From IMG/VR virus record IMGVR_UViG_3300017716_001756, positions 15,047-79,046 of that record: a stretch of DNA of 64,000 bases. The stretch is one strand, 5' to 3'. Below are positions 34,997-37,770 of the stretch, in pieces. The stretch's first letter is position 1; each line of letters starts with the position of its first letter. This DNA comes from a virus (taxonomy: Duplodnaviria > Caudoviricetes). The translations under genes were made by a program, and so were the position numbers. The notes under the pieces were generated by a model. That model made no database searches. It was not told where the DNA came from and worked only from the letters and a program-made list of their open reading frames with translations.

Positions 34997-35698
34997 ATGA
35001 ACAAGCAACGAACGGATCACTACGGAGTGCATCTAGCCTCTAATGGCCTTTGGTTTCTTATCCAGAATGACGAGCAAAATGAACGTGGACTTCTCAATGT
35101 CAAAAGTAATATCGCAGTTAAAACACATCGTAACCGACCAGTCTCTCACTCAATCCGGTTGGGTTCTGGCGAACTCGGTGACGATCTTTCTGCTGCAACT
35201 CTCGAATGGCTTTCTAGGGACAAGCTAGGAAGCCTTCTGCTCCCTGATCCTCGGAACGCGGGTAGGGTGGTCTTCGTAGAAGAAGACCCTAAACTTCACA
35301 ATCAAATCTATCTTGTAGGCTCGCTGACTTCATCGATTCGTGCGCCAGTACGACTGGCGTGGACCGTGACCTTGGGGGAGGCCAAGGCAGAATTTCGGCT
35401 CACAAATGTTCAACCCTTCATCATCACCGGTGTCACTCCTAAATGGATGGCGCAACATGGTTCCGAAATCGCCGCCCTATTCAGGGCGGGTACTAGACCT
35501 CTTATCCTTGTTGGCTCTAGCGACGTTGTTATACCTCGCGAAGTCCAAGAAAGATTGAAGCCCGGTGCCTTCCGTCGCCTAGGAAAACACACCCCTCAAC
35601 AGCTTGAGCAAATGGGTTCAAGCTTTCTTCAGAAATGGTTTACCGATGCAAGAAAAAATAACGATCAGTGGCGAGCAGTATTCGTACCAAGAATTTGA
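34997..35698 (+). CDS. Hypothetical protein
   Basis: 233-aa ORF. Confidence 0.65.
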   Translation: MNKQRTDHYGVHLASNGLWFLIQNDEQNERGLLNVKSNIAVKTHRNRPVSHSIRLGSGELGDDLSAATLEWLSRDKLGSLLLPDPRNAGRVVFVEEDPKLHNQIYLVGSLTSSIRAPVRLAWTVTLGEAKAEFRLTNVQPFIITGVTPKWMAQHGSEIAALFRAGTRPLILVGSSDVVIPREVQERLKPGAFRRLGKHTPQQLEQMGSSFLQKWFTDARKNNDQWRAVFVPRI

Positions 35699-36098
35699 TT
35701 ACATTCAGGAAGATACCACGGTATTGGCTCAGATTCTGAGAACACAAGCCAATCTCCTTGATAGAGGGGTCTCTGATGGACTCACCTTCAGCGCCGATGC
35801 CCCGGTTAACGTTCTCTATCATAAAGACCTAGTTGTAGGTTTCATGATTTATGAAGACACTGGCTCCATCGAACGCACGATCACTCTTGCGTGGGTCCAT
35901 CCCGCACATCGACAGAAGGGTCTCCATAGTTTTCTGTTTAGGAAACTGAAGGATCAGGCAACCGAACACGGATTCTTCCGAATCCTCCGAGGGCATCATA
36001 AGGAAAATTATGCGTCTGCTCTTGCACAAATGAGTCAGGGTTCCCAGATTTACGCCACGAACGGTGATTACGTTTACACGAGGAACGATCTGCGATGA
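35646..36098 (+). CDS. GNAT-family acetyltransferase
   Basis: VVGFMIY...LAWVHPAHRQKGLHSFL...N.AS. Confidence 0.8.
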   Translation: MQEKITISGEQYSYQEFDYIQEDTTVLAQILRTQANLLDRGVSDGLTFSADAPVNVLYHKDLVVGFMIYEDTGSIERTITLAWVHPAHRQKGLHSFLFRKLKDQATEHGFFRILRGHHKENYASALAQMSQGSQIYATNGDYVYTRNDLR

Positions 36099-36107
36099 CC
36101 CCGATTT

Positions 36108-36323
36108 TTGTATTCAGCTCAAATCTCTCTGGTAACTTCTATCTATGTGCATAGACCCGAGGGACATGAGGTAGATCATGAGATACCATTAAATCATCCT
36201 TTAGTATGTGGGCTACATTGTGTAGCCAATCTTCAGTATCTTATTGCTGAAGTTAACAGAGAAAAATCAAATAGGTTTAACCCCAATGACTTCAGTTACC
36301 CTTCGCGACTATCAACAGCTTGA
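36108..36323 (+). pseudogene. N-terminally truncated HNH endonuclease overlapping the helicase start
   Basis: [25 protein letters not shown]...NREKSNRF, a paralogue of the two full HNH genes; only a TTG start, no clear RBS. Confidence 0.65.
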
Positions 36324-37770
36324 TCTAGCCTACATGATTCATAAGGGTCGAGGTCTCTTCATGCACGATCCGGGAGTTGGATAGCCCGAAAGGGCACATG
36401 GAAAAACCCCCCCCGCCTGTATCTTCATCTATTATGTCTGGGCCAAGCATAGGGCTAAGACACAGTGGGCAATGCCTACACATTTGATGAAGAAGAACAA
36501 GGCCGAACTACTGCGATGGAGTAATTTCAGGGATGAAGAGATTGTCATTGTGGACGGTACCGCAAAGCAGCGAGACGCTCTGCGTAACAATAGTGTTGCC
36601 AAGGTATTCATTACTTCTTTCCCCGAACTTACCCGCAAGGATAAGCAGAAGGTTCCTGCTTGGCAAAAGTTCCCCGGCACCGATCTGATAGTTATCGACG
36701 AATTCCAGAAGTATTTCTCGAATCACGATAGCCCCTCTACTCAAGAGCTTTACCGATGCATGAAGAGCAAGAAATTCTTCCTCGGCATGAGCGGTACCGT
36801 GATGAAGGGAAGACTGGACAGCGCCTACCCGATGATTCAAATCATCGCCCCACAATACTACGGGAACTATTGGGACTTCTTGATGCAACACGCTATCAAG
36901 GATTTCTGGGGTAAGGTTATTGGATGGAGAAACCATGAGAAGCTTAAACAAGTCCTCTATAGGATCGGTCGTCGTACATCTTTTGAAGATGTTTTTGGCA
37001 AGAGAGATATCGTTTTCTTTATTGAGGAAATTGATATGGGACTCGGTCAGAAAAAACTATACGACCAATTCAAATCCATGGGGATGGTTGAGCTTGAGAA
37101 AGTCGTCCTCGAAGGGTCGAACGAAGGCGTAAACCTTCTAAGACTCCGACAGATTCTGGCACACCCCGAACGAATCTCTGTCCCGATGGAGAGAGATAAG
37201 GACGGAAAGATTACTAGGTTTGAAGTCGTCGATGCCTCAGGGAGCGTTGACACGGAACGTGACGAACGTATCAAGCTTCATATCCAAGACCACCTCGATA
37301 CCAAGGAGCCACTTGTTATCGTATCGACCTTGATTCCCGAGCAAGAGCGTCTATATAAGCTCGCAACCAGCATGGGGATGAAGACGGCCCTCATCAATTC
37401 CAACACGCCTAACAGCACCCGATGGAAGATTGACGAGGACTTTCAGGCTGGAAGACTTCAGTGCGTGGTAGGTTCGCCCACCACTATGGGCACAGGCTTC
37501 AATTGGTCGCACATCAACCATATCCTTTTTGCAGGATTGGATTTTGCGACTGATGATTTCATTCAGATGCTGATGCGAGCCTTCCGGGGCAAGCGGAATC
37601 AGCCTCTGAAGGCCACACTGATTCAATACAAGAATTCTGTGGAGCAGCACTTGGATAAGGTACACGACGAGAAGAGCCGACAGTCGAGCATTGTCGATCC
37701 TACTTATCTCACACTGAACCTGAGCGGGCATCATAGAACACCTGAAAATGGGGTCTTCGTGAGCGGTTGA
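36286..37770 (+). CDS. SF2 (SNF2/DEAD-like) helicase interrupted by a 21-nt in-frame coding gap (36382-36402)
   Basis: ATG 36286: Q motif LRDYQ, HDPGVG-[TAG...GGA]-KT, motif Ia WAMPTHL, II IDEFQ, III SGT, V GTGFN, VI QMLMRAFR; 487 aa if the gap is skipped. Confidence 0.85.
36379..36402 (+). other. Candidate programmed ribosomal bypass element
   Basis: GGA(take-off) TAG CCC GAAA GGGC ACAT GGA(landing); hairpin GCCC-GAAA-GGGC. Confidence 0.75.

Follow-up and report, generated by a model that had tools for sequence, protein, structure and literature searches.

A candidate 21-nt translational bypass cassette in the Walker A motif of a freshwater phage helicase gene

Introduction

How could a phage make an intact DNA helicase from a gene whose Walker A motif is interrupted by an in-frame stop codon? 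The question is raised by a helicase gene in a 64,000-nucleotide (nt) stretch of tailed-phage DNA, here called the window, which comprises bases 15047-79046 of a 79,046-base IMG/VR virus record (IMGVR_UViG_3300017716_001756; completeness rating 96%). Within this gene, 21 nt that begin with TAG split the codons of the Walker A motif (HDPGVG/KT). We consider it probable that these 21 nt constitute a minimal translational bypass cassette of the T4 gene 60 type that doubles as a homing immunity device, a reading drawn from comparison of the window with related phage loci.

In the literature searched, programmed bypassing is known from very few natural systems. Phage bypassing has been described for T4-type topoisomerase genes, 'exclusively' so in one account (Manning and Atkins, bioRxiv 10.1101/2022.08.31.505936), and the terminase gene of phage Hau3 provides a further candidate (PMC10732093). 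A search of the literature for helicases, the Walker A motif and bypassing found nothing relevant.

Results

An in-frame insert divides the helicase Walker A motif

The list of open reading frames (ORFs) begins the helicase only at ATG 36472. In the same frame, an ATG at 36286 opens 32 codons that end in CAC GAT CCG GGA GTT GGA; these are followed by the gap (36382-36402; TAG CCC GAA AGG GCA CAT GGA) and then by AAA ACC CCC CCC GCC TGT. The 23 codons from 36403 to 36471 contain no in-frame start. When the stop is read through, Pfam recognizes SNF2-rel_dom (PF00176; 29.9 bits, cut-off 24.9) and Helicase_C (PF00271; 34.4 bits, cut-off 23.5), and the protein matches PHROG families annotated 'DNA helicase'. 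Helicase motif I is contiguous only when the 21 nt are skipped, which yields the junction HDPGVGKTPPAC and a 487-amino-acid (aa) product with the features of a SNF2/SF2 helicase.

A database search retrieved 139 helicase homologues, of which the 18 closest were aligned. The uninterrupted proteins in this alignment share the sequence HDPG[VTG]GKTPPAC, with the exception of P0008 (locus L049; MSDPGTGKS). The window is unique among them in carrying extra codons, exactly seven, between the G and the K of HDPGxGKT.

A preliminary description of this locus, made from the letters of the window, had placed the upstream ATG at 36286, the TAG at 36382, the bounding GGA codons, a hairpin and an AGGG 5 nt from the landing codon; all of these are confirmed base for base (Table 1). 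Its proposal that skipping the 21 nt restores the P-loop and a 487-aa SF2 helicase is borne out by translation, by Pfam and by the homologue alignment, and the comparison with related helicases that it called for finds inserts present or absent at the Walker A motif. It had also asked for a re-check of the sequencing. A Logan contig (run X1, 36x), possibly from the same sample, covers 35900-37100 with zero differences; three further runs hold short pieces only, which end short of the insert.

The cassette recurs in related phages

Metagenomes of other samples supplied four more phage lineages that carry this cassette in the same place, giving five lineages in total, and gene callers truncated the helicase at its N-terminus in all five. 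Two of these lineages were recognized through the close homologues P0005 and P0009, which had been called without N-termini and whose DNA (loci L002 and L003) contains cassettes. With slashes marking the ends of the gap, L002 reads GGA / TAG CCC GAAA GGG CA TTA GGA / AAA, and L003 reads GGT / TAG CCC TGCG GGG CA TTA GGA / AAA at the same codon position as the window. Landing of L003 on an in-gap GGG or GGC was considered and rejected, as it gives a frameshift or a 3-residue insertion and not the native loop.

The remaining two lineages came from a test of prediction. Two contigs were picked solely because they carried close homologues of the endonuclease encoded at L003, and both proved to hold an adjacent N-truncated helicase with a cassette. 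In L060 the sequence is GGC / TAG CCC TGCG GGG CA TCA GGA / AAA. In L057 (also L058 and L059, from other runs) it is GTA / TAG CCC TGCG GGG CA TAA AAT GTA / GGT AAA; here the gap is 24 nt long, lies one codon further 5′ and contains both an in-frame TAG and an in-frame TAA. The codon pairs for take-off and landing are thus GGA/GGA in the window and L002, GTA/GTA in L057, GGT/GGA in L003 and GGC/GGA in L060, so that the matched pair moves with the site, from GGA/GGA to GTA/GTA. Four helicase loci, L004, L047, L048 and L051, are empty when read at the DNA level.

Blastn of the region against 50,697 phage records gave no match, and a scan of IMG/VR with the helicase found no close relative. A profile scan of IMG/VR returned 42 loci of at most 40% identity, in all of which the P-loop region is uninterrupted. 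The cassette pattern TAGCCCNNNNGGGCANNNGGAAAAAC has 0 matches in IMG/VR and 0 in GTDB genomes, and the one metagenome scan gave a single locus, L047, which is empty.

Constraint on the cassette

Eleven core positions of the cassette (TAG CCC .. GGG CA) are invariant in the five lineages; they cover the stop codon, every one of the four pairs in the stem and the CA that comes next. Among four-fold degenerate sites in the same genes, 6 of 91 are invariant, and near the junction 0 of 9. The loop varies solely between GAAA (GNRA) and UGCG (UNCG), both of which are stable tetraloop classes, and the four changes that separate the L002 and L003 cassettes are precisely the four loop bases (GAAA to UGCG). 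L003 and L060 are diverged at synonymous sites (dS, synonymous substitutions per site, ~0.9), yet only 1 of their 21 cassette positions differs. Read as codons, the cassette shows radical changes (ER to CG, H to L) together with fixed third bases in CCC, GCA and GGA, the opposite of coding behaviour. The cassette is therefore constrained as RNA or DNA and not as codons. Recent spread does not explain this invariance, since the endonuclease genes of the cassette elements, which serve as a neutral yardstick, have saturated synonymous sites (proportion of synonymous differences, pS, 0.62-0.94).

These observations bear on stop-codon read-through, in which a suppressor or near-cognate tRNA would decode the TAG and the helicase would work despite seven additional residues in the P-loop. 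In favour of this, the four 21-nt variants keep the reading frame, and some distant homologues have a degenerate Walker A motif (DPATQKT, DPGSAKT), indicating that the loop is not absolutely rigid in the family. However, the insert does not evolve like codons. TAG terminates 12 of the 55 largest ORFs of the phage (TAA 23, TGA 20) and is therefore an ordinary terminator in this genome, and no tRNA genes were found in the whole 79 kb. The hairpin starts inside the stop codon, and in T4 such an arrangement blocks both termination and read-through (PMC5462505). Because L057 holds an in-frame TAG and an in-frame TAA, read-through is excluded for that lineage; for the window it is very unlikely. The preliminary description had discounted read-through on account of the seven inserted residues, and the double stop, the ordinary use of TAG and the lack of tRNA genes lend weight to that judgement. 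A phage with a reassigned stop codon or a suppressor tRNA was rejected in view of the 12 of 55 large ORFs ending in TAG and a genome devoid of tRNA genes. Pyrrolysine-type UAG decoding was rejected because the hairpin begins within the stop codon and L057 has the additional TAA.

Sequences just downstream of the cassette also differ between occupied and empty genes. After landing, cassette-bearing genes use AAA AC[CT] and mostly CCC CCC for K-T-P-P, which creates runs of 6-8 C (window 36403-36420, L003, L060), whereas empty relatives use AAG AC[GA] and CCT/CCA. In the minimum-energy fold of L003, the G-rich 3′ arm of the cassette (GCGGGG) pairs with the downstream C-run and encloses the landing site. 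This pairing may represent a second structure with a role in landing, or the C-run may be donor sequence that was carried along.

Selection on the helicase gene

Selection on the helicase segments was assessed with Nei-Gojobori counts. Between the window and L002, the 5′ segment has a proportion of nonsynonymous differences (pN) of 0.18 and a pS of 0.71, and the startless segment has a pN of 0.15 and a pS of 0.64. Across the window, L002 and L003, synonymous sites are saturated, and pN is 0.14-0.31 in the 5′ segment and the 23 startless codons. For L003 and L060, omega (the nonsynonymous to synonymous rate ratio) is 0.15 in the 5′ segment, 0.04 in the startless segment, 0.035 in the next 40 codons and 0.046 in the rest of the gene. 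Both halves of the helicase, including the startless stretch, are thus under strong purifying selection, and the gene is a living one. Since the startless stretch evolves as protein, it must be reached by ribosomes from upstream.

This pattern is difficult to reconcile with a split gene, in which translation would terminate at the UAG and restart downstream, and a 32-aa peptide would assemble with a C-terminal fragment. Insertions of homing endonucleases are known to divide genes into halves that interact, as in T4 gp39/gp60 and Aeh1 NrdA, and a G-rich, Shine-Dalgarno-like element lies ahead of the landing codon. Between the stop and ATG 36472 the frame offers no start, yet the 23 codons of this interval evolve under strong purifying selection; L002, L003 and L060 lack the out-of-frame ATG of position 36398, and the P-loop would be cut between its G and K. 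We regard a split gene as highly improbable.

The same measurements bear on whether the helicase might be a pseudogene, or the 21 nt an error. Metagenome assemblies supply all of the data, which leaves room for artefacts, but the cassette occurs in five lineages that differ in sample and assembler. In a pair of genes that both carry it (L003 and L060), omega is 0.04-0.15 to either side of the cassette, which is itself far more conserved than neutral sites. A dead gene or an assembly artefact is accordingly an extremely unlikely explanation.

A putative HNH-type endonuclease gene lies upstream of each cassette

At the five cassette loci, an endonuclease ORF lies directly upstream of the helicase on the same strand and overlaps its start; the four empty loci read (L004, L047, L048 and L051) are without it. 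The window remnant retains the motif VDH..IPL..VCG.H..N.QYL..N..K.N, can be aligned to the complete endonucleases of L003 and L049 (161-190 aa), and matches phrog_26577 (E 2.6e-07) and phrog_1035 'endonuclease VII' (E 7e-06); Pfam and NCBIfam gave no hit for it. What is left of the endonuclease in the window (71 aa) and in L002, where it is a fusion remnant, is no more than its catalytic half; both keep the cassette. Where the endonuclease is full-length, it is under purifying selection (pN 0.11-0.19).

A set of 30 endonuclease homologues shares the motif VDHIIP..VCGLH..N.Q.L..N..K.N without variation. Profile comparison matched the endonuclease to phrog_1035 'endonuclease VII' (E 1e-17) and phrog_144 'HNH endonuclease' (E 1e-3); searches against Pfam, NCBIfam and PDB sequences gave no match. 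An AlphaFold2 (AF2) model (pLDDT, the predicted local confidence score, 85) has as structural neighbours almost only HNH domains, which align weakly over residues 97-157 (Foldseek E ~1, VIA Z <=3.3). The invariant motif, the PHROG profiles and the model with its weak HNH neighbours together suggest a nuclease, set against the negative Pfam, NCBIfam and PDB results.

Cultured phages also encode relatives of the endonuclease (35-41% identity): they are found in 9g-like coliphages and Salmonella phages, such as Escherichia phage JenP1 and Salmonella phage SE1, where they are annotated as 'hypothetical proteins' and lie beside a queuine/7-deazaguanine transferase gene. At least 518 relatives are present in IMG/VR. 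This distribution across cultured phages and IMG/VR points to a widespread, unnamed family of free-standing nucleases. Among 80 IMG/VR loci with distant relatives (28-54% identity), no helicase homologue was found. A scan of these 80 loci for a stop followed by a GNRA or UNCG hairpin gave terminator-like sites only, and its sole candidate, L114, was rejected as an ordinary gene end.

The cassette forms the end of a mobile element

The clearest view of the insertion comes from L051 (empty) and L057 (occupied), which are near-isogenic, with a dS of 0.13 over most of the helicase and blastn flank identities of 92% and 94.6%. In L057, 1186 nt replace 120 nt of L051, and homology resumes at the landing codon. 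The 1186 nt contain a metallophosphatase-like ORF and a 169-aa endonuclease, as well as the cassette and a copy of the helicase 5′ segment that has diverged. The first ~120 nt past the landing codon are 73% identical, and the divergence fades over ~300 nt, a gradient expected for co-conversion around a homing site. This pair combines presence/absence polymorphism between near-identical genomes with flanking co-conversion. In the helicase tree, cassette-bearing and empty genes interleave, with at least three state changes on well-supported branches.

These comparisons show that the cassette is the 3′ end of a ~1.2-kb mobile element, whose other parts are an HNH-type endonuclease gene and a helicase 5′ end that the element brings with it, and that this element entered or was lost from the helicase lineage several times. 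By analogy with T4 MobA, the insert would break the endonuclease target in the conserved Walker A DNA and so protect its carrier without changing the protein.

A different arrangement is seen in L049 (L049:182-870; also L050; Logan SRR10682031 / SRR10681955), the sister of L003. A related 190-aa HNH-like gene lies on the opposite strand just upstream of the helicase, there is no cassette, and four residues in or beside the P-loop are substituted (MSDPGTGKSIPAAL versus MHDPGTGKTPPACL). L049 may have acquired target immunity through substitution rather than bypass.

Genomic context

The phage was recovered from a freshwater sample. Its genome encodes a 1969-aa tape measure protein, a primase, a DNA polymerase and an SbcC-like protein, and its closest cultured relatives, as judged by the helicase, are ~80-kb phages such as Achromobacter phage JWF (JWF-like siphoviruses), at ~40% identity. 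At the place taken in the window by the acetyltransferase ORF (Table 1), most relatives have a 137-163-aa PHROG 2072 protein (FVFGSNxAGxHGAGAA). In L002, the first residues of the PHROG 2072 protein are fused to the endonuclease remnant.

Table 1 Features of the interrupted helicase locus and its upstream neighbours, in window positions
Feature	Position	Strand	Remarks
Helicase 5′ coding segment, 32 codons, MTSV..HDPGVG	36286..36381	+	Aligns with N-termini of uninterrupted homologues
Take-off codon GGA (proposed)	36379-36381	+	Last codon of the 5′ segment
Stop codon TAG	36382..36384	+	Invariant in 5/5 cassette lineages
Predicted hairpin, 12 nt, stem GCCC/GGGC, GAAA tetraloop 36388-36391	36384..36395	+	Centroid structure; first G is the G of UAG
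AGGG, possible internal Shine-Dalgarno-like triplet set	36391..36394	+	GGG ends 5 nt before the landing codon; putative role
Landing codon GGA (proposed)	36400..36402	+	Final 3 nt of the gap 36382-36402; GGA in all four 21-nt variants, other Gly codons vary
Helicase 3′ coding segment, KTPPAC... to stop (37768-37770)	36403..37770	+	SNF2-rel_dom and Helicase_C
Decayed putative HNH-type endonuclease ORF, 71 aa, C-terminal catalytic half only	36108..36323	+	3′ end overlaps the helicase start
GNAT-type acetyltransferase ORF	35604-36098		Upstream of the endonuclease remnant; Pfam Acetyltransf_1 23.5 bits, cut-off 20.7

Discussion

Our analysis offers an account of how the divided helicase gene may be expressed as one protein. 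A ribosome would decode GGA at 36379-36381 and then meet UAG in its A site, where the 12-nt GCCC-GAAA-GGGC hairpin, which includes the G of the UAG, would form in or at the A site and hinder the release factor. The peptidyl-tRNA-Gly would let go of its codon, and the ribosome would slide over 21 nt, perhaps steered by the GGG triplet, which lies 5 nt upstream of the landing codon. Re-pairing of the tRNA with GGA at 36400-36402 would let decoding restart at AAA ACC, giving a single 487-aa helicase with an intact HDPGVGKT loop. We infer take-off, sliding, landing, the role of the GGG and the cleavage of empty sites by the endonuclease from sequence and from the T4 analogy. The hop put forward in the preliminary description gains support from the recurrence in five lineages, the invariant core, the co-moving codon pair, the selection on the gene and the HNH element; the GGT and GGC take-off codons qualify it.

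Several observations weigh against this mechanism. The identical flanking triplets could be a 3-bp target duplication left by insertion. The take-off codons of L003 (GGT) and L060 (GGC) differ at the third base from the landing GGA and would be read by a different tRNA-Gly, assuming E. coli-type decoding. The spacing from the GGG to the landing codon is 5 nt in the four 21-nt variants, whereas in L057 it is 8 nt and outside the range of 5-7 nt. No cassette-specific nascent-peptide signal was seen, and the 5′ segment, which has 32 codons only, resembles that of empty relatives. All of the loci are metagenome assemblies, and no RNA run is listed for the locus. The local folding energy is no better than that of shuffled sequence (z 0.58), and there is no stem covariation across the five lineages, because the stem never varies. 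It is the related loci, and not folding energy, that carry the case beyond chance; the structural argument rests on the invariance of the stem and the two loop classes.

Removal of the 21 nt from the mRNA before translation, by a micro-intron or by another form of excision and ligation, would give the same protein. The conserved hairpin and the precise boundaries would also suit an RNA-processing signal. However, excision leaves unexplained the stop-first order, the matched and co-moving flanking codons and the G-rich triplet at Shine-Dalgarno distance. We know of no bacterial or phage system that removes a 21-24-nt segment from an mRNA, and we consider this explanation unlikely.

The helicases of L055:2318-2440 (ENA ERZ27249409 k141_274778) and L054:140-330 (JGI 3300049472 Ga0499968_000706) belong to a more distant clade with ~40% identity and the sequence ANLSDPGTGKT. 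In both, the Walker A DNA is broken two codons upstream of the window's site by an insert that starts with a stop. In L055, the 6-nt insert TAA CTT lies in frame between GAC CCT and GGC, where a hop from CCU to CUU would allow a G-C and two G-U pairs with a GGG anticodon. In L054, the insert TAAAAGTACA between GAC CCG and GGT is 10 nt long, shifts the frame and is without a matching landing triplet. An AP2-like ORF lies upstream in L054; L055 has no adjacent endonuclease. In L053 (L053:1691-2500; Logan SRR23704187), an intact helicase is called from a late Met and has unusual residues after GKT, GKTGPCVVMSYYVW; upstream of it, a 200-aa ORF contains an AP2-like domain, which could be a homing-endonuclease module for DNA binding.

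We favour, with moderate confidence, the wider view that the cassettes described here represent a second natural family of bypass cassettes, apart from the T4 topoisomerase family. This family would consist of a minimal 21-24-nt module, built from a stop codon, a 12-nt A-site tetraloop hairpin, a G-rich triplet and a landing codon and carried by HNH elements as Walker A self-immunity, would function without an element-encoded nascent-peptide signal and would tolerate a third-base mismatch at landing. Taken together with the L054 and L055 gaps, bypass as homing immunity would then be a general and overlooked strategy in phage replication genes. If true, the five natural variants, which between them cover two classes of tetraloop, two codon pairs, two lengths of gap and landings with and without a match, provide a ready mutational series for finding out which signals bypass really needs. 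Such a family would also support the idea that bypass cassettes evolve as immunity devices of homing endonucleases in sequences too conserved to change. For annotation, these loci carry a warning: N-truncated phage helicase calls can hide intact recoded genes.

Comparison with known systems

The locus shares with group I introns and inteins the presence of a selfish endonuclease element in the most conserved part of an essential gene, with the interruption removed from the product. Those elements self-splice at the RNA or protein level. In contrast, the endonuclease gene here is external to the helicase ORF, which is interrupted only by a 21-nt insert that breaks the target; this insert is too small for either an intron or an intein mechanism.

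[quoted passage not shown] They differ in being mitochondrial, present in many copies per genome and served by another translation system, and they lack a link to an endonuclease gene.

In the terminase gene of Streptomyces phage Hau3, a candidate bypass of 10-nt gaps is triggered by UUA and has mass spectrometry support in E. coli (PMC10732093). As with the helicase cassette, an essential phage gene is interrupted by a short coding gap, and bypass is proposed on the strength of a slow A-site codon, nearby RNA structure, an internal Shine-Dalgarno element and a landing codon. The Hau3 trigger, however, is a rare sense codon, its proposed role is regulatory, its gaps shift the frame, and it has no link to a homing endonuclease.

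The closest likeness is to T4 gene 60, in which a 50-nt gap is bypassed and whose homologues lie in an HNH homing-endonuclease element, MobA (Manning and Atkins, bioRxiv 10.1101/2022.08.31.505936). The T4 sequence (NC_000866) reads GAT GGA TAG CCTTCGGGC...ATT GGA TTA. Cryo-electron microscopy of the T4 take-off complex revealed a 12-nt A-site hairpin with three C-G pairs and a tetraloop, which contains the stop and blocks the release factor and read-through (PMC5462505). T4-type cassettes have stop-first gaps, GNRA and UUCG loops and, 5-7 nt ahead of the landing codon, a G-rich triplet; in one clade the gap is 20 nt; their sites shift by one codon (G46 versus D45) with matched pairs, and the reported pairs are always read by the same tRNA (bioRxiv 10.1101/2022.08.31.505936). 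The ~1.1-kb MobA element brings along a copy of the neighbouring coding sequence, and its end falls at the landing codon or immediately past it; its endonuclease decays and the cassette stays, the known function of the cassette being protection from self-cleavage (bioRxiv 10.1101/2022.08.31.505936).

The helicase locus follows this plan in many respects. A take-off Gly codon is followed by UAG, a 12-nt tetraloop hairpin that includes the stop lies in the same register, and a G-rich triplet precedes the landing codon by ~5-7 nt. The first 8 nt, GGATAGCC, are identical, which agrees with the T4 take-off sequence given in the preliminary description. The cassette is likewise the 3′ end of a ~1.1-1.2-kb HNH element with a copy of host coding sequence, and here too the element stops at the landing codon or immediately past it. 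Patchy distribution, endonuclease decay with the cassette kept and a one-codon shift of the site with a change of pair are further features in common.

The differences are equally distinct. The T4-type family has been described as exclusive to the topoisomerase II large subunit (Topo2L) of T4-like phages (bioRxiv 10.1101/2022.08.31.505936), whereas the cassette described here lies in the Walker A motif of a SNF2/SF2 helicase in a ~80-kb tailed phage that is not a T4-like myovirus. Its gap is 21-24 nt and in frame, its hairpin has only 4 base pairs with no long take-off stem, no element-specific nascent-peptide signal is evident, and the gene is not split into two ORFs with added tails. [quoted passage not shown] Because the host gene differs and only 8 nt are shared, common descent is not supported; the helicase cassette would work like the T4/MobA family without being a member of it.

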